From an uncultured Planctomycetota bacterium (lineage in GTDB: Bacteria > Planctomycetota > Planctomycetia > Isosphaerales > Isosphaeraceae), in the NCBI GenBank assembly GCA_963845755.1, contig CAWJTV010000036.1, positions 320,001-384,000 on the forward strand: a stretch of DNA of 64,000 nt, in the 5' to 3' direction. Below are positions 55,359-63,844 of this stretch, one piece after another; position 1 is the stretch's first letter; every line of letters starts with the position of its first letter. The notes beneath the pieces are model-generated. The model had not been told where the DNA came from. It did no database searches and worked only from the letters and a program-made list of their open reading frames with translations. A program made the translations under genes and the position numbers.

Positions 55359-58310
55359 CTACTCCATAAACATGAATTCGTTGGTCAACAACAACACCTG
55401 TGTCAACTGTTCCCAGGGAGAGAGTGGCGGGTCGGCGAGCGAGCCGCCGGTCTTGCCCTTCATGATCTGCTTCCAGCCGTCGAGCCGGGGCGCGGACGGT
55501 CCGGCCTCGCAGCGGAGGAACTCGGCCGCCAGCGCGAGCTCATCGGCATCGGGCGGGCGCGCGAGGACGCGGCGGTAGAGCCGGCGGATGCCGTCGGCCG
55601 GGTCGGCGGACGCGTCCTGCCCGATCGCGGCCGACAGCCGTCGCGCTTGCTGGTGCAGGAACGGGCTGTTCATCAGGAAGAGGGCTTGTTGCGGGACGGT
55701 CGTCACGAACCGTCGCGGGCTGGTCGCGTCGGGGACGGCGAAGTCGAACGTGCGATAGAGTCCGTCGAGGTTCTGGCGGTCGATGAAGCCGTAAACCGTG
55801 CGACGGGTCGAGAACGGGGCCTCGGTGATCGCCACCGGCCGGCCTCCGATCGCGGGGTCCAGGTCGCCCGAGACCGCCAGGATCGAGTCGCGCATCGCCT
55901 CGAAATCGAGCCGCTGGGGGCTGAACCGCCAGACCAACCGGTTCTCGGGGTCTTTCGAGGCGACATCCGGCCTCGGGGCGCTGCTCTGTTGATAGGTGCG
56001 GGAGAGCATGATCCGGCGGTGCATCGCCTTGATCGACCAGCCGTCGGCCTGGAACCCGGCGGCCAGGTGATCGAGCAGTTCGGGGTGGGACGGCGGGTCG
56101 CTCCGCAGGCCGAAGTCGCTGGGCGTGGTGACCAGTCCCTTGCCGAAGTGCCAGTGCCAGACGCGGTTGACCAGCACCCGGGCCGTGAGTGGGTTCCTGG
56201 CGTCGGCGATCGCCTGTGCCAGCTCGAGCCGGCCGCTCCCCTTGCGGAACGGCGGCGGCTCCGGCCCGGCGAGTACGTGGAGGAACCGGCGCGGGACCGC
56301 CTTGCCCGGCCGTCCCGGGTTGCCGCGGAGGAAGACATGCGGCTCGACCGGCTGGGGTGCATCGTTGAGCACCATGGCCCGAGCGGGGGCCGACGGATCG
56401 GTCGCATTCAGCCGATCGATGGCGCCGTTGAGCTGAGCGAGCTGATTCCCTTGCGTTTGGTCGAGGTAAAGGCGCCGGGGATACTCCGAAGCGGCAAGAG
56501 GCCCGCCCGGTCCGAAGAGTGCCTGGCGGAACGACTCCCATTCGGGCTCAGGAAGAGGCGTCGCGGACTGGGACTTGACCGACTTTTGCGCGACCTCTGC
56601 CTTCTGCCTCGCCTCGAGCTGGCCGAAAAGACCGACATACCGCGCGACAACCTCACTCATGCTCGACGGAGGCGAACCACTCAATAACGCCCGCGCGATC
56701 AGGGGATGAATCGCCTTGGCCGCCGCGATGGCCGGGTCCCGGTGGACGTCCGCCGCCCTGGTAACGAAGCGCTCGCGGGGCAAGGCGGCGAAGGCCAGCC
56801 AGGGGGCCAGGATCGGGTCGGACTTCGAGGCCGTCGCATCCAGACGCTGTTTCCAGAGCATCATCACGCCGCGAAGTCGTCGCGCATTCAGCTTGTCGGC
56901 CAGGGCGCGCTCCTCCAGTCGCGGGTTCCTCGTGTTGAAGTCGAGCTCATAACCGGCCTTCAGATACTGAGAGAACCGCGCGGCGAGGTCTCTCTGGACG
57001 TCGTCGCGACGCGCCGTGAGGTAAGCGTCCCGCTTCTTCTTGGCCGCCTCGAGTTTGCGCAAGAAGTCGGCGGATCGGTCGGCCTTGCCGGCCCCGGGCC
57101 AATCCAGCGCGGGGAGATCGGCCGGCTCGGTCGAGCTGGCGAAGACGCCGTAGAGCGAGTAATAGTCGTCGGTCGGGATCGGGTCGAACTTGTGATCGTG
57201 GCATCGGGCGCAGGTGACCGTCAGGCCGAGCAGACCGCGGCTGACGACGTCGATCCGATCGTCGATGATCTCATTCTGGTCCAGGAGGAACCTCCGGCCG
57301 ACCGTCAGGAACCCCATGGCGGCCAGGGGCCGGGTGTCGCCGTCCTGAGGGAGTTGATCGGCGGCGAGCTGCTGGATGATGAACCGATCGTAAGGCAAGT
57401 CGGCGTTGAAGGCGTTGATGACGTAGTCGCGATAGGTGAAGGCATAAGGATATCGGCGTTCCTGGGTGAAGACATAGCCCTTGGTATCGGCGTAACGTGC
57501 GACGTCGAGCCAGTGCCGCCCCCAGCGCTCGCCGTATCGCGGCGACGCCAGGAGTCGGTTGACCACGTTGGCGAAGGCGTCCGGCGACGCATCGGCCTCG
57601 AACGCCTCGACCTCGTCGGCCGTCGGAGGAACGCCCCAGAGGTCGATCGTGGCGCGGCGGATCAAGGCGCGCTTCCCGGCCGGCGGCGACGGAGCGATCC
57701 CCGCGGCTTCCAGCCGGGCCATGATGAACGCGTCGATCGGCGATTCACCCCAGCTCTTGTCATGCACTGGTGGCGGAAGGACCGTCCTCAACGGCCGGAA
57801 GGCCCAGTGGGCCGGCGCGTTGGCCGAGTGAGACATCGCCGCATTCTTGGCCGTATCGTCCGGCCAGGGCGCACCGAGGGAGACCCATCGCGTCAGGAAC
57901 TGCACGTCCGCGTCGGAGAGCTTCCCGTTCGGCGGCATCTTCAACTCGTCGTGCCGGTAAGTCACGGCCTGGACCATCAGGCTCGCCTCGGGCTTGGCCG
58001 GTACGACCGCCGGCCCGGTATCACCCCCCTTGAGCGCCGCTGCCTGGCTGTCGAGCCGCAGGCCCGACGACTGCTTCCGAGGCCCGTGGCACTTGACGCA
58101 CCGTTCGACCAGGATCGGCCGGACCCGCGCCTCGAAGAACTCGACCGCCTCCGGCGATGGCGAAGTCGCGACCGGCTTCGGCTCATCGGCCCGAGTTCGC
58201 AGGGCACCCAGGCCCCCGCTCTCCGCGATCACGGTAATGGCCAGCGCCAACCGGCAGAAACGTCCGATCCGGAATCTTCTCCCCAATCGCTCAGGTCGAT
58301 CTCGGTCCAT
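55359..58310 (-). CDS. PSD1 and planctomycete cytochrome c domain protein (DUF1549/DUF1553)
   Basis: CVKCH, YGERWGRHWLDVARYAD, CARCHDHKFDP, NPLTARVLVNRVW, PSHPELLD, PQQALFLMN. Confidence 0.92.
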   Translation of the reverse strand: MDRDRPERLGRRFRIGRFCRLALAITVIAESGGLGALRTRADEPKPVATSPSPEAVEFFEARVRPILVERCVKCHGPRKQSSGLRLDSQAAALKGGDTGPAVVPAKPEASLMVQAVTYRHDELKMPPNGKLSDADVQFLTRWVSLGAPWPDDTAKNAAMSHSANAPAHWAFRPLRTVLPPPVHDKSWGESPIDAFIMARLEAAGIAPSPPAGKRALIRRATIDLWGVPPTADEVEAFEADASPDAFANVVNRLLASPRYGERWGRHWLDVARYADTKGYVFTQERRYPYAFTYRDYVINAFNADLPYDRFIIQQLAADQLPQDGDTRPLAAMGFLTVGRRFLLDQNEIIDDRIDVVSRGLLGLTVTCARCHDHKFDPIPTDDYYSLYGVFASSTEPADLPALDWPGAGKADRSADFLRKLEAAKKKRDAYLTARRDDVQRDLAARFSQYLKAGYELDFNTRNPRLEERALADKLNARRLRGVMMLWKQRLDATASKSDPILAPWLAFAALPRERFVTRAADVHRDPAIAAAKAIHPLIARALLSGSPPSSMSEVVARYVGLFGQLEARQKAEVAQKSVKSQSATPLPEPEWESFRQALFGPGGPLAASEYPRRLYLDQTQGNQLAQLNGAIDRLNATDPSAPARAMVLNDAPQPVEPHVFLRGNPGRPGKAVPRRFLHVLAGPEPPPFRKGSGRLELAQAIADARNPLTARVLVNRVWHWHFGKGLVTTPSDFGLRSDPPSHPELLDHLAAGFQADGWSIKAMHRRIMLSRTYQQSSAPRPDVASKDPENRLVWRFSPQRLDFEAMRDSILAVSGDLDPAIGGRPVAITEAPFSTRRTVYGFIDRQNLDGLYRTFDFAVPDATSPRRFVTTVPQQALFLMNSPFLHQQARRLSAAIGQDASADPADGIRRLYRRVLARPPDADELALAAEFLRCEAGPSAPRLDGWKQIMKGKTGGSLADPPLSPWEQLTQVLLLTNEFMFME

Positions 58311-58690
58311 GCCACGATCCTTGAGTTAGCGAGCTTCCGGGTCTGTAGGTCGTCCGGTCACGGTGGGATGGCTCGGTTTGGGGGAGGCAGCCGGGCGGGT
58401 CTGGGGTTCTCAATCGTCGATCAACCCCAGCAAGAGATCGGCCACCGCGAGCCACTGTCAGCCGATCGGTCATTAATCGATATTCGACCGCCTTCATTAT
58501 TCCTTCCTCCACTCACGCTGGCAACCCCCGAGAACGGTGCTGCCCGGTTTGCCCCGCCCTCACCGACCTGGGCTCGCCTGGCGCGTTTTGGGGATGACCC
58601 GCCGTGAGTTCGTTCGGCGCGACCCAGGGGTGACTGGCAATTTCCCTTCATTTGATAAATTCGATTCATTTTACCTATTCTTCCTAATTT

Positions 58691-58842
58691 TGGGTTCGTT
58701 TCGTTGATTTCGTACTCTTCGGACCCGTGTCCTGGCTTCGTTTCGTCGATTTCGTGTTCGGGCGACCGCGTGCTCTGGGTTCGTTTCGTCGATTTGGCGC
58801 GGGTCGGCCCGCCCGACTGGGTTCGTTTCGTCGTTTTCGTTT
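58691..58842. repeat. Four copies of a ~21-nt motif (GGGTTCGTTTCGTCGATTTCG consensus) at 42-43 bp spacing
   Basis: Copies start at 58692, 58734, 58777 and 58819 with dissimilar intervening sequence. Confidence 0.8.
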
Positions 58843-59436
58843 CCGATGATCGCCGAGCGCTCCGCCGCCCGATTTCGATCCAGGTCTTCATGCTACCACT
58901 CACTCTCTTCGCCTTTTTGCGCACCCCGAACGCCGCCAGGAAGTCCCGATACCTTTTATTAATGGACACTTTTGAAGAATTAGCAACTCGGCTCCGGGAA
59001 TTCGTGAGATGGGTTCGGGTGTTTGGAGACGACCATCGGCTCCGATCGCAGGAGGACTTCTCCTCAATAGAGCGAGGGCATCTTGGCGTGAACGTGGAAC
59101 ACGATTTGAAATCAACTTGTTGGTATTATGGGTGCGTGCACGGATGTTTCATGGGTTTCCTGGAGAGCAGTCATGACTAGCGGCATACCGGTACACGCCC
59201 TTTTTTGGTTTTTCGGGAATTTTTTTTGGGGATGACAGTAGAAGTCCTACCCCTCGTCCTACGATGCAGTTATGATCGGACGCTGAGGGGGGTGGATGAC
59301 CCCACGCAACCCACGAGGACGGAGTCTCGACGGAGCAAGATCGGGCCACGGTGAAGGTGAATCACTCCACACTCAGAACCTGACGTCGAGTCGAAAGCCG
59401 CGTTGAAGGTGTGGGTGCTCCGGAGGAGTTCGGGCC

Positions 59437-60421
59437 ATGTATAAGGCCGCGCGACCGCCTGTGCGGCGGATGATGGTGATTGACCAGGCGCTGCGGGCCA
59501 ACCGGTGGCCTAACTCCACAACGCTCGCCAGGGAGCTGGAAGTCACCATCCGGACGGTCCGGCGCGACGTCGCCTACCTGCGGAATCAATTGCGCGCGCC
59601 GATTCGATTCGACCCACGACGCAACGGTTATCACTACACGGAGCCGACCTACCGGTTACCCCTCTTTCAGCTCACCGAGGGGGAGCTCATCCGCTCTACC
59701 TGGTCGAGCGGCTCATGAGGCAATTGGAGGGGACGCCGTTCGAGTCGGACTTGCGACAGGCGATTGCCAAGCTGGGCGAGTTGCTCCCCGACGGCGTGTC
59801 GATCCGCCTCGACGCGATGGCCGACATGCTGTCAATCCTCCCGGCGGTCCGGCCGTATTACGACCCGGAATCGTTCTGCGCCCTCACGACGGCCGTCGCC
59901 TGCCGACACCGGGTGGAGATGGTCTACTGGACGGCGAGCCGGAACGAGACGACCCGGCGCACATTCGACCCGTACGATCTGGTCCTGATCGAAGACGGCT
60001 GGTATGCGGTCGGCTATTGCCATCTCCGCGCGGAGGTCCGGACGTTCGCCGTGCAGCGCGTCCGGTCGTTGCGCGCGACGGGCGAGACGTTCGACCGCCC
60101 GGCCGACTTCCGGCTCGAGGACTACATGAGAGGCTGCTTCCGGCCGTCCGCGGCGACGGTGATCATCGAGGTCGTCCTCCGCTTCACGCCCGACGTCGCT
60201 GGCCGGATCGCCGAGAAACAATGGCACCCGAGCCAGACTATCGAACACCAGCCCGACGGCAGCCTGATCGTCCGGTTCCGGCTTTCGAGCCTCGTCGAAG
60301 TGAAGCGATGGGCGATGTATTGGGGGGAAGCATGCGAGGTGATGGGCCAAGTGTTCTGCGCGAGGCCATCGCGGAGGAAATCGAGAGAATGGCGGCAACT
60401 ACCTATCTGAAAGGCGTTTAA
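59437..60421 (+). CDS. wHTH-WYL-WCX transcriptional regulator (frameshifted)
   Basis: LARELEVTIRTVRRDVAYLR; RRTFDPYDLV...GWYAVGYCHLRAEVRTFAVQRV; WHPSQ; EVKRWAMYWG. Confidence 0.9.
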
Positions 60422-60532
60422 GGAAAATGGCGTGTCGTCGAGCGAAAAAGGAGGCCCTTCTTGGGGTCGAGATCACGTATTACAAGATGTGGAGAGAGTG
60501 TTGCTTGTAGTTTCCAAGTAGTGAGGTCTGCC

Positions 60533-61029
60533 ATGACATCGTACGAGACATCGGTCGTCATGAGACTTTGGATGCTGGTCGTCCGTTTTCTCCGTCGGAA
60601 GGGTTTTCAGGAGAGCGTCGCTGAGGACATCGCAAGCGCAATGCGTGTGAGCATGATCGAGAGACATTCGCAATTCTTGCAGGGAGGATATCCCTCGAAA
60701 CTACCTCGTTGCCTGTCTCGGGAAGCCCTATCCAGAGCCTCCGTTGCATTGAAACGATCACAACGAGTAAAGAATCTAGATCCTCATGACATGGATATGA
60801 CTCTGAATTTCGAGGCCAATGCAGCCAAAGCAAGCTTTCTTCGTGTCAGGAAGCGCGATACGACGGCCTCAGGATGTTTCTCAGCGAGGCAAAGATCAAG
60901 AAATTGGAGGAGTGCACTTCCGCCTGCGGCGGCGAGAAACCGAGGCAGTCTGATCTGGCCAGATCGATTGGCATGAAACGGAAGAAGTGGAAAGCTCTAC
61001 GAGACAAGATGAGAGCATTCCTAGCCTAG
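60533..61029 (+). CDS. Divergent ECF sigma-70-like / HTH protein (~165 aa if one frameshift between about 60790 and 60850 is corrected)
   Basis: GAGGT then ATG 60533. N-half VRFLRRKGFQESVAEDIA...LSREALSRA...LKRSQR resembles sigma region 2. Alternate frame open 60790-61029 gives LSEAKIKKLE...RQSDLARSIGMKRKKWKALRDKMRAFLA*, resembling region 4. Confidence 0.5.
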
Positions 61030-61153
61030 ATTTGTGATTTCCATAATAACAAGGATTGAAACCTTGTGAGTTTTCAAGCAGGAACGAACCCCAGCGATTC
61101 GTGCCCGACTCGGGCACGGTCGCCCGTCGGTTCCATCAGAACCCTATTCACAC
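61026..61153 (+). CRISPR. Mini-array / crRNA-like RNA: one 37-nt type I-B-style repeat, one spacer, a hairpin and a degenerate second repeat
   Basis: Repeat CTAGATTTGTGATTTCCATAATAACAAGGATTGAAAC (61026-61062); spacer from 61063 CTTGTGAGTTTTCAAGCAGG...; hairpin CGTGCCCGACTCGGGCACG (61100-61118); degenerate repeat GTCGCCCGTCGGTTCCATCAGAACCCTATTCACAC (61119-61153). Directly upstream of cas6. Confidence 0.75.
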
Positions 61154-61172
61154 GTTGAGATCGGAGGCAGAT

Positions 61173-61848
61173 TTGACAGGCGTCGTCGACAAGACGATCG
61201 ACTTCATGAGCATCCAGCATGATCTGGGCGTTCGGCTCACAATGTCGCATGCCCGTTGGCTTCGCGGGGCAGTCATTCGGCGCGCCAACCGGCCCGAATT
61301 TCATCAGCATGACGACGATGGGGTGATCTATCGCCATCCACTGATCCGCTACGACGTAAGCACGGGCTCGGCGAGATCGCCGGCCTCGCCGAAGGTGCTT
61401 TACTACTCCGATCCATGCCTGCCCTTGAAGCGTTCTCGCTAGGAGGCGAAACCTTGAGAGTCCGGCAGCGAGATGTCGAGGTGACCCGCGTCGAGATCGG
61501 CCCCACAACAGATCCGATCCATTATTCGTTTCAGACCCCTTATCTGGGCTTGAACCAGCAGAACCACCACGATTGGGACGCAGCTCCGATCCGGAACGTC
61601 GGTGTCTGCTCAGTCGGATTGTGATCGGTAACCTGCTCTCGCTGTCTAAGGCAATCGGGCTGCACGTCTCCGAGCGTTTGCATGCTGAGGTTGACTTGGA
61701 GCCCTGCGGGATGCAGACTCTCAAGCCCGGTCTCGCTTTGCTCGGCTTCCGAGGCTCGGTCCGGATCAACTTTCGGTTGCCGACCCGGTGGGGGATCGGC
61801 AAGAGCAGCGCCCGCGGTTTCGGGACCTTGGTTGTTCAGGAGGCGTGA
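61173..61848 (+). CDS. cas6: CRISPR-associated endoribonuclease Cas6 (Cas6b-like), two frameshifts
   Basis: GGAGG then TTG 61173; LRGA...FHQH....IYRHPLIRY, TPYLGLNQQN, IVIGNLLSLSKAIG, Gly-rich GIGKSSARGFG. Confidence 0.88.
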
Positions 61849-61849
61849 G

Positions 61850-63844
61850 ATGGCCAAATCCAAGTCTTCATCCGGTTCCGTCTCGAACGTGGCCATCGAG
61901 TTTCCACGGACGGGTAATCCCTGGACTGATGCCGGGACCGTCGGCCTTTACCGCATATTGAACCGAGGGAAGTCGAGTTACGTCGACCCGCCGGCTGATC
62001 TTGACTTCGATCTCGTTCAAGCGTCACGGTTCCCTGATGTCCGATTCGACGAGCTGCAGCAAGATCGGTTCGTGATCAGGGGACCGACGGACCAGGTTCA
62101 AGCCTGCCTGGAAGCGGCCTATGAGCGCCTCGTGTCAATCTACTTCAACGTATCGAGCAAGAAGCAAAAGGAGGAGAAGGGGACCTACAATTTTTATTAC
62201 TGTCGCTCTGAGCAGGACTTCATCTCATTCGCCAAGAAGAAAGCGGCCGGAGCGGCGCTGCTACTCTTCGATAAGGCCGCGAGGCCATCCCGGGATCAAG
62301 CGGAGTGGGGGACCTTACCCGATGCGCGCGGCAAGCCCGTCCGGACAGCCGGTCGGATGCCACCAGATTATGCCCACCTCCAGGAGAAGCTTGATGAGTT
62401 TCTGACTCGTGAAGGTCTCAAGCCTGGGCCACCGGCCGGCCTGCTCATCGACGGACCCAACCAGGTCCGGCCCAAGGTCGAGATCCGCGTCGCTGACCAT
62501 TCCGCCAAGCCCAAGTCCTTCTGTTTCTTGAGCGGTGACCCCGGCTCCACGTTCGTCGAGGCCAAGGAGACGGCATTTCCGCTCCTGGGAGGCAGCCGGT
62601 CGTTCATCAATGGCGTCGCTGACTGGCCCCGCATGGGTTGGAAGATCGACTTCGTCGGGAAGTTCGTCCCTGCCGTCTCGTTCTTCTATCTCCAGGGTGA
62701 GGATATCCACGTCTTTTTTCCGGAATCGACCAACCTCCGGCGCATCGATGCACTGGCCGATATGCTGGCGGGCATGGTCCAACTCGAACCGAACCTCTTC
62801 AGGAATTTCGAGTTGTTGCTGAGCTCACCGAAGCTCCGGCCCTTCTTCCAGCGCCGCTCCGAAGTGGCTCTGGGGTTTCTATACACCGTGTTCGTCAAGC
62901 TCAGCGAACATCAGTCGCCCCCGATTGCCACGAAGCAGGGCGATTCAGCCGTCGGCTCGCGGCTCGTCTCGCTCGACGACGAGCCGGAGACACCCGAAGG
63001 ATCGGAGGAGGCCGAAGAAGAGCCGATCTCGATCGACGCCGTCTTCGGTGCCCTGCAAAGAGAAGGGGCGACAAGCTTCACCGTGGTCTCGGCTTCGAAG
63101 AAGGGGAACGTCTGGATGGCCCGCGACTTCACGACGTTTCGGGACATCGAGCGTCTGGCCCGGCTCTTCGCCCGCATGCAAAGACGGATCCAGATGAAGG
63201 ACGGGCGCGGCCGGTACGAGTGCGACCCGAAGAAGCTCATGGCTGCGCTCATCGACTTCGAGGCCAAGGCCGAGTCTCGTACCTTGCTCCGCGACAAAGT
63301 CTGTGAATCGCTCCTTCAGGGCGCAAGCGTACTGCCGCTACTGGAGCGGCATGCTTTTCACATCAACCCCCATGCCGATACGAGTCAGGCGCGGTCCGTT
63401 GGACCGCTGCTCGAATTCGCCCGGCTCTACGAACCGGAATTGCGGAAAGGAACTGATATGGAAGAACCCTATTCGCAGATGGTGAAAACCGCGACCTGGC
63501 TTGGCGACTCGATTGGCAAGGCACTCGCCCAAGCGGTGCTGGGAAGGAGCGATGACCAAGCCGAGGAGGGGCAGGCCAGAGAAGCCGCTCAGAAAGAGAG
63601 CCCGGGGCGGGCCAAGGGCGGTCTCTTCCGCTTGCGGAAGACTCGCACCATCGCCGACTTCGTCAACGAACTGGCCCGGCTCCAGTTTCGATACAAGATC
63701 GACGTTCCCAAGGAGGTGCTCGACGGCGATACGTTCTGCCCCGATCTCTTCGAGGAGTTTCGCGGGTTTTGTGTCGTCGCCGCGTTGAATCGGTTCCAGT
63801 ACCTGACCCGCAAGCGTACGCAGGCGCCGAACACGACCAACTGA
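61850..63844 (+). CDS. cas8: Type I-B large subunit Cas8 (Cst1/Cas8a1-like)
   Basis: N-terminal TGNPWTDAG.VGL motif; ~664 aa; lies between cas6 and cas7 with tight coupling. Confidence 0.75.
   Translation: MAKSKSSSGSVSNVAIEFPRTGNPWTDAGTVGLYRILNRGKSSYVDPPADLDFDLVQASRFPDVRFDELQQDRFVIRGPTDQVQACLEAAYERLVSIYFNVSSKKQKEEKGTYNFYYCRSEQDFISFAKKKAAGAALLLFDKAARPSRDQAEWGTLPDARGKPVRTAGRMPPDYAHLQEKLDEFLTREGLKPGPPAGLLIDGPNQVRPKVEIRVADHSAKPKSFCFLSGDPGSTFVEAKETAFPLLGGSRSFINGVADWPRMGWKIDFVGKFVPAVSFFYLQGEDIHVFFPESTNLRRIDALADMLAGMVQLEPNLFRNFELLLSSPKLRPFFQRRSEVALGFLYTVFVKLSEHQSPPIATKQGDSAVGSRLVSLDDEPETPEGSEEAEEEPISIDAVFGALQREGATSFTVVSASKKGNVWMARDFTTFRDIERLARLFARMQRRIQMKDGRGRYECDPKKLMAALIDFEAKAESRTLLRDKVCESLLQGASVLPLLERHAFHINPHADTSQARSVGPLLEFARLYEPELRKGTDMEEPYSQMVKTATWLGDSIGKALAQAVLGRSDDQAEEGQAREAAQKESPGRAKGGLFRLRKTRTIADFVNELARLQFRYKIDVPKEVLDGDTFCPDLFEEFRGFCVVAALNRFQYLTRKRTQAPNTTN

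Follow-up and report, generated by a model that had tools for sequence, protein, structure and literature searches.

The stretch of DNA analysed here (the window; 64,000 nt, G000:C36:320001-384000) belongs to the genome of a soil planctomycete, of 14.3 Mb with 64% G+C. It contains a solitary, degenerate CRISPR repeat followed by a short spacer-like sequence, located between a small gene resembling extracytoplasmic function (ECF) sigma factors and the cas genes of a system which is type I-B as judged from Pfam and NCBIfam matches, the PADLOC match of Cas8b and the array. The spacer-like sequence matches the leader of the sigma-like gene. Based on the sequence comparisons described below this feature is real and conserved. 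It is almost certainly a guide/site pair for Cascade, and it probably represents an autorepression circuit of the CreR type.

The degenerate repeat (PsiR1) comprises 37 nt at 61026-61062 on the + strand. It ends with AACAAGGATTGAAAC and overlaps the stop codon of the sigma-like gene. The main array of the system is located beyond the window end at C36:390438-403700 and consists of 177 repeats with the consensus GTTGACGCGACCAATCCACCACAACAAGGATTGAAAC. The final 15 nt of PsiR1 and of this consensus are identical, and the 5’ part of PsiR1 has diverged. This 15-mer occurs once in the window and 178 times in the genome, i.e. 177 times in the array plus PsiR1. The comparison with the main array that the first-pass annotation of the window had suggested thus identifies the solitary repeat as a relative of the array repeats. 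Rfam matches 61030-61062 to CRISPR-DR7, though weakly with 23.3 bits compared to a gathering score of 37. The last 8 nt of PsiR1 would serve as 5’ handle of a CRISPR RNA (crRNA).

Directly 3’ of PsiR1 follows CTTGTGAGTTTTCAAGCAG (61063-61081). The guide part of this spacer-like stretch (PsiS, 61063-61080, + strand) matches a protospacer-like target site in the leader of the sigma-like gene (60504-60521, + strand, CTTGTAGTTTCCAAGTAG). The site abuts a GAGG at 60524-27, and the ATG at 60533 follows its end at a distance of 11 nt. On its 5’ side, in the guide-identical strand, it is flanked by a TTG (60501-60503, + strand) resembling a protospacer adjacent motif (PAM). Guide and site have 16 of 19 letters in common; guide position 6 requires a 1-nt gap, and the letters differ at positions 12 and 17. 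All of these elements, from the repeat to the spacing and the identity, are located precisely where the first-pass annotation had placed them. Disregarding every sixth position, 14 of 15 positions match over 17 nt, and there is no matching past position 19. The 19-mer pattern occurs once in the window with 0 occurrences expected. Moreover, first-order resampling of the 2 kb upstream, repeated 300 times, never reached 14 matches (highest 13), hence chance does not explain the match. A search of the own genome allowing 2 mismatches returned 7 matches, which is not above a hand-estimated chance figure.

Co-variation of guide and target site in related loci

Among 121 genomes of the same family, 15 hold a relative of Cas6, in type I-B loci of metagenome-assembled genomes of Planctomycetota, Isosphaeraceae and ‘Planctomycetaceae’. 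Ten of the 15 show a solitary repeat shortly upstream of cas6 ending with ..AACAAGGAT(T/C)GAAA(C/T). The module is found at the same place in these 10 loci, which represent 7 genera, and the 3’ part of PsiR1 is retained throughout. In all of them the best match of the guide bases is located on the same strand, 526-684 nt upstream, and is preceded by TTG (six loci) or TTA (four loci).

The distribution of matches along the guide is periodic. Guide and site are identical in all 10 loci at each of positions 1-5, in 3 loci at position 6, in 9, 9, 10, 10 and 9 loci at positions 7-11 and in none at position 12. Positions 13-17 match in 8, 8, 8, 8 and 6 of the 10 loci and position 18 in 3. For positions 19-24 the values are 4, 3, 1, 8, 1 and 2 of 10, whereby we read the 8/10 at position 22 as a coincidence with the ribosome-binding region. 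Pooling positions 1-5, 7-11 and 13-17 over the ten loci, 135 of 150 cells match. At the same time 13 of these 15 core positions vary from locus to locus. Cognate pairs of guide and site agree on average at 13.5 of 15 positions compared to 7.81 for non-cognate pairs, and the observed sum was reached by 0 of 100000 permutations. The latter figure is not a formal probability because the loci are kin and form only about 5-6 distinct guide lineages by eye (G000; G084/G085; G035; G002; G069; G024/G064/G081/G086).

Cascade of E. coli type I-E flips out every sixth base during pairing (PMC5904413), which accounts for a period of six with free sixth bases. Judged from the alignment of guides and sites, the 5-1-5-1-5 match pattern is the every-sixth-base signature of Cascade pairing. 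The ten loci represent natural evidence of uncommon quality, as guides and sites have diverged between species, remain matched within each locus and leave only the bases flipped out by Cascade free to change. The co-variation of spacer and target in homologous loci, which the first-pass annotation had proposed to look for, is hence found in 10 of 10 loci with the repeat. Its central claim of guided Cascade binding at the leader of the upstream open reading frame (ORF) gains support from this co-variation, from the 5-1-5-1-5 pattern and from the TTG/TTA flank.

A wider scan included 80 Cas6b-bearing contigs. One further clear case is a locus of Desulfococcaceae (L058), in which 15/15 positions match behind a TTA flank and the mismatches fall on positions 6, 12 and 18. 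Its site is located only 66 nt upstream of the guide with no gene between them. L055 is a possible further case, matching at 14/15 positions but with an ACC flank.

The PAM was also assessed from the spacers of the arrays. One spacer of the G000 array matches the genome of a relative at 33 of 37 positions behind TTG, and one of G035 matches a congener at 32 of 36 positions behind TTC. Another match of a G035 spacer, to its own chromosome (G035:C10:179755-179918), is perfect (35/35) and located behind GCG. This self-targeting spacer is probably tolerated owing to its flank, which is GCG and not TTN. Deriving the PAM from protospacers, as had been suggested, consequently yields a divided answer: TTG is seen at one near-full protospacer and TTC at another, but the perfect self-match has GCG. 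No full-length match in the own genome was found for 175 array spacers, and no protospacer was found for the array in phage and plasmid collections. Short spacer matches in genomes of the family are mostly GC-rich partial or repeat-like and do not represent protospacers. An array spacer near the distal end (C36:403486; L037 13180-13230) is a low-complexity repeat of the GGAGACGC type and matches many places in the own and related genomes.

The sigma-like gene and the adjacent cas operon

The gene enclosed by site and guide is located at 60533-61029 on the + strand. It is interrupted by one frameshift in the G000 assembly between ~60797 and 60840, and tblastn with the intact 154-aa homologue of G085 revealed 55% and 47% identity in two frames. 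The first-pass annotation had regarded the upstream ORF as the gene whose leader is targeted, and it indeed adjoins the site in the window. Its resemblance to ECF sigma factors and its conservation are added here. An ORF is present at this place in 10 of 10 loci. Eight were found by a profile search, and those of G069 and G081 were recognized by eye in translations; the profile consists of five rows, which are among the eight loci it detected.

Pfam Sigma70_r4_2 scores above its cut-off of 25.7 in two of five intact homologues (G024 with 28.4 bits, G064 with 27.2 bits). It does not match the homologues of G085, G035 and G002, the ORF fragments of the window have no Pfam or NCBIfam match, and a model of sigma region 2 has none among the homologues. 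All homologues share a motif of the (A/S)(E/D)D(V/I/L)(A/V) type in the alignment (by eye), which we take to correspond in place to ECF sigma region 2. The best matches of the profile in the PDB are sigma-H, a sigma factor and SigL, colinear over both regions with E-values of 0.005-0.014. The AlphaFold model, built on a 5-row alignment, is all-helical and of moderate quality (predicted local distance difference test 71.8, predicted template modelling score 0.40). In Foldseek, ranks 1-7 and 9-16, which make up 15 of the top 16 rows, are sigma factors, mostly of the ECF type, all with E-values of ≥0.17; no match reached an E-value of ≤0.001. A search for homologous proteins with the sigma-like ORF returned the query itself only. 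Weaker matches of the profile elsewhere in the genomes of the family seemingly represent ordinary ECF sigma factors, as 3 of 4 checked carry Sigma70_ECF above cut-off. The ORF at 60533-61029 is best described as a divergent ECF-sigma-like protein and as a plausible but unproven member of that family.

The sigma-like ORFs of G084 (L020 795-1289) and G069 (L023 811-1317) shift frame immediately ahead of the C-terminal helix-turn-helix; in G084 the shift is located close to a Lys-Lys (KK) stretch. Either an assembly error or a genuine slip site may account for the frame change; G084 and G069 apparently originate from the same series of metagenome-assembled genomes as others.

A putative promoter region of the sigma-like gene was recognized by eye at 60444-60500 on the + strand. 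It consists of a GC-rich ..GCC(C/G)CTTCTT.. (~60453-60462) and a TA-rich stretch (~60478-60483), and most of the 10 loci have, by eye, comparable promoter-like elements at comparable distances. The simplest reading is one transcript spanning the sigma-like gene, the mini-array and the genes from cas6 onward.

Complementarity of the guide to its target ends at ~61080, which is where a predicted, extended imperfect hairpin begins (61081-61134, + strand). The region 61026-61175 folds with a minimum free energy of -46.7 kcal/mol (z -3.05), and none of 200 shuffles fold as well. The hairpin may define where the RNA ends at its 3’ side or make it more stable. Its sequence is kept in G084 and G085, and the comparison of these two revealed no compensatory changes (0 of 21 pairs). 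At the 3’ flank a possible remnant of a second repeat (PsiR2, 61131-61153, + strand) was noticed by its resemblance, by eye, in the alignment of the 10 loci.

From the element towards the array the cas operon consists of cas6b, cas8b, cas7, a 340-aa ORF, cas3, cas1, cas2 and a cas4-like gene, the likeness of the latter being judged by eye. An AT-rich leader and the array follow 3’ of the cas4-like gene. The gene cas6b (61173-61848, + strand) was identified by Pfam Cas6b_N and Cas6b_C across three ORF fragments and by three colinear matches to Cas6 of G035. It starts with TTG at 61173 with GGAGG just ahead, whereby the TTG start is common to G084 and G085, and two frameshifts distribute it over three frames in the G000 assembly. 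The gene for the large subunit and PAM reader, cas8b (61682-63844, + strand), matches PADLOC Cas8b (CAS-I-B) with an E-value of 1.3e-15 and is 54.5% identical to its homologue in G035. The cas7 product was identified as Cst2/DevR with 207 bits. No model identified cas5; the 340-aa ORF occupies its expected place. Upstream of the target site, three ORFs of 633, 158 and 313 aa are located on the + strand (window 56706-60421), none of which has a Pfam, NCBIfam or PADLOC match. By eye, the coding end for the C-terminus of the 313-aa ORF is similar to what precedes the site in G084 and G085, and this ORF may be part of the locus.

A proposed CreR-type circuit

Starting from the observed anatomy, the relation of PsiR1 to the array repeat, the PAM-like flank and the co-variation with sixth bases free, we infer expression, processing, binding, repression, absence of cleavage and any anti-anti-CRISPR role by analogy with published CreR/CreA systems. 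We assign a probability of about 0.78 to a CreR-type autorepression circuit, with Cascade repressing transcription while leaving the DNA uncut. The region 61026-61153 would be transcribed, probably within a transcript starting upstream of 60501. Cleavage by Cas6b would leave the last 8 nt of the degenerate repeat attached to the guide, resulting in an RNA that begins with AUUGAAAC (61055). Cascade (Cas8b, Cas7 and Cas5) would take up this guide RNA and read the TTG at 60501-03, whereupon guide positions 1-5, 7-11 and 13-16/17 would pair with the template strand at 60504-21. Pairing would end after ~18 nt, leaving an incomplete R-loop that does not license Cas3; for this reason Cascade would park on the DNA without cleavage.

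The target is located between the presumed promoter and the ribosome-binding site of the sigma-like gene, with the mini-array and cas6-cas8b-cas7-cas5-cas3 downstream on the same strand. Owing to this position at the head of the operon, bound Cascade would exert negative feedback: the sigma-like gene and the guide that Cascade itself carries would be transcribed less, and so, probably, would the cas genes. The brake would be released by anything that removes free Cascade, e.g. many crRNAs or anti-CRISPR proteins.

Descriptions of CreR-type self-regulation of CRISPR-Cas date from 2021-2023 and mostly concern a few model strains. In CreR/CreA mini-CRISPRs of types I-B, I-E and V-A, cas promoters are repressed via partial complementarity (Liu et al., 10.1101/2023.03.10.532045). 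The element described here resembles them by a degenerate repeat that retains the handle, a short spacer-like stretch with PAM-proximal partial complementarity and a site with a PAM-like flank heading the cas operon, as well as by the predicted binding without cleavage and an autorepression that would sense free Cascade. In contrast to the published cases, the gene behind the site is a small ECF-sigma-like gene and not cas8 or cas6. Moreover, the guide is located ~560 nt downstream of its own site and within the unit to be repressed, its spacer-like stretch enters a long hairpin with no clear second repeat, and the host is a planctomycete. Repeat-like sequences are reported as enriched beside cas6 in type I-B (27%), with PAM-flanked predicted targets at the cas6 promoter (Shmakov et al., PMC10120712). 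The same study describes for type I-D mini-arrays that apparently control non-cas cargo including transcriptional regulators, the cargo being located downstream of the mini-array in contrast to the sigma-like gene. The words sigma, HTH (helix-turn-helix) and Planctomyc each occur 0 times in the main text of that paper; the lineage may figure in its supplements. On this reading the feature is a known kind, CreR, in a new arrangement and a new phylum, with a sigma-like first gene, a guide ~560 nt downstream and a hairpin in place of the second repeat.

Several points weigh against this circuit. A scan of 60300-61300 with the sigma-70 consensus found no promoter on the + strand, whereby the promoter types of the phylum itself lie outside such a scan; its lone site, on the minus strand, is taken as chance. 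For this reason the location of the site at a promoter is unproven, and both the promoter upstream of the site and the transcription route of the mini-array are inferred. PsiR2 is not supported as a proper second repeat and is at best a faint remnant, as its local score of 7 was equalled or beaten by 344 of 500 resamples. Independent support for the PAM is thin, with two near-full protospacers (TTG, TTC) facing one perfect self-match (GCG). The system could be decaying, since the cas genes carry frameshifts (two in cas6, several in cas3, one in cas1). Finally, the site in the window requires the 1-nt gap at position 6, which brings the tolerance of Cascade into question; if the gap is real, just 5 contiguous seed pairs are in register.

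The frameshifts are probably mostly assembly errors and not signs of decay, because essential genes of G000 are frameshifted too, rpoB once and rpoC twice (C34:79366-83015 and C34:567489-571586), not only in homopolymers. At least one of these breaks is a single-base loss outside a homopolymer, and gene calls of G000 need frameshift-aware handling. Contigs from a soil metagenome run (0.20 of sampled words), mapped on 60001-62000, cover only 60666-60816 and 60886-61036 among the relevant parts, with 2 and 0 differing letters, respectively, and no indels. Among the listed runs that contain the DNA of the window, none is registered as RNA.

The gap at position 6 is needed in G000 and G024 only, and 8 of the 10 loci pair gapless. 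G064, whose first 11 guide nt are the same as those of G024, has a T at the place of the gap, and G081 and G086 have an A. The first-pass annotation had suspected a base missing from the assembly. This caveat is reasonable insofar as both gapped loci stem from indel-rich assemblies, that of G024 being a single 8-Mb contig of 58% completeness, but two independent errors at the same guide position would be a striking coincidence. Altogether we consider a real gap and an assembly error to have roughly even odds. For Cascade of E. coli type I-E a seed of 5 bp plus PAM is sufficient for binding (PMC5904413). Given this precedent, five seed pairs plus PAM would allow binding here as well even if the gap is real, and the remaining bases would pair via a one-base bulge at the flipped-out position. 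A real gap would also show whether Cascade tolerates a target without the flipped-out base.

The circuit places a sigma-factor-like gene directly under predicted control of a guide RNA. It is conceivable, though we regard it as rather doubtful, that the protein is a dedicated CRISPR sigma factor gated by the guide RNA, so that Cascade and the CreR-type RNA would act as a transcription-level anti-sigma in a two-step relay. If so, titration of Cascade by crRNAs or its blocking by anti-CRISPRs would result in production of the sigma-like protein, which in turn would steer RNA polymerase towards promoters of cas, CRISPR or other defence loci. Should the protein really be a sigma factor for promoters of cas or CRISPR, it would translate Cascade occupancy into a transcriptional programme and represent a new link between CRISPR surveillance and RNA polymerase specificity.

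Alternative explanations and related elements

The same binding might serve another purpose if the sigma-like protein were a Cascade-repressed toxin of the CrePA/CreTA type. Loss or inhibition of Cascade would then lead to production of the protein, which would tie up RNA polymerase and stop growth, making the cas genes addictive and expelling anti-CRISPR elements. A protein toxin repressed by a CreA RNA has been published for type I-F (Shu et al., 10.1101/2024.01.05.574328), and the element shares with CrePA/CreTA a cas-adjacent non-cas gene that would be held down by a crRNA-like RNA via its promoter or leader. Toxin-antitoxin genes are reported as enriched between mini-arrays and cas genes in types I-B, I-E, I-F1 and I-D (PMC10120712). 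The gene that would be directly controlled is non-cas here as well, and competition of a sigma-like protein for core RNA polymerase is conceivable. However, the protein is sigma-factor-like and no toxin family was found for it in Pfam or PADLOC, where the homologue of G085 has no match and that of G024 a weak one in the helix-turn-helix region. Its nearest relatives are ordinary ECF sigma factors, and the gene is the first one of the operon on the same strand and not a separate unit. We consider a toxin unlikely.

The feature could also be a functionless remnant, i.e. what is left of a decayed array, namely its last repeat and a spacer that originated from DNA of the host itself. Solitary repeats without a detectable target do exist in relatives (G001, G014, G012 contig 59 and G032), and the frameshifted cas genes of the G000 assembly would fit decay. 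Nevertheless, the module is kept in place in 10 loci of 7 genera with mismatches limited to the sixth positions and the PAM-distal part, and guide and site change together, while a decaying self-spacer would not co-vary with its source. Recent gene conversion would result in identity at positions 6 and 12, but position 12 matches in 0 of 10 loci. A remnant is thus highly improbable.

Furthermore, Cascade loaded with the guide might recruit the sigma-like protein and RNA polymerase in order to start transcription, as dCas12f does with sigma-E. Transcription guided by RNA has been published for dCas12f with a dedicated ECF sigma factor, including guides that act on the rpoE-dCas12f locus itself (PMC12259090). 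An ECF-type sigma factor is functionally tied to a CRISPR-related locus in this system and, as DdvS/DdvA, in Myxococcus xanthus, although DdvS is subject to a membrane anti-sigma and not to a guide RNA (PMC6061681). In our data the ECF-sigma-like gene is tightly linked to the guide RNA in 10 of 10 guide-bearing loci, and one weak Foldseek row is an RNA-guided transcription complex (9n9q_C, E 2.5). The geometry favours repression in contrast to activation: dCas12f activates at a fixed distance from its site, with transcription starting 45-48 bp after the target-adjacent motif (PMC12259090), but here the site ends 11 nt before the start codon in the window and 7-16 nt before it in 7 of 9 loci counted by eye, so that a start site together with a ribosome-binding site would not fit beyond the R-loop. 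In addition, the sigma-like protein comprises only ~150-190 aa, in which no additional domain for docking was recognized. Activation is accordingly very unlikely on these grounds.

ECF sigma factors commonly recognise promoters ahead of their own gene and of their target operon. Two copies of a protein-binding site or promoter element, e.g. for the sigma-like protein, would fit this habit as the copies precede the sigma-like gene and cas6, but such a duplication is scarcely credible given that the match begins at the first base past the conserved repeat handle, that the period of six remains unexplained (position 12 never matches, position 6 in 3/10) and that the TTG/TTA flank is found at the upstream copy only.

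Searches for the mini-array gave none in five further Cas6-bearing relatives (G098, G108, G003, G015 and G012). In the G098 contig (L049 905-1820) the sigma-like gene and mini-array are replaced by a different ORF, which looks by eye like a WYL-type regulator. In another locus (L051 2550-2850) cas2 directly abuts cas6 instead. It seems that regulators are exchanged in the region before cas6.

Solitary copies of the repeat 3’ end were also observed remote from cas6 relatives, in L009 (G001), L010 (G014), L012 (G012 contig 59) and L013-L015 (G032). In these four genomes no match of ≥12/15 behind TTN was found within 8 kb. The three solitary copies of G032 are located on what appears to be a repeated element. 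More repeat-like matches are located on G081:C128, G013:C25, G083:C545 and G001:C2.

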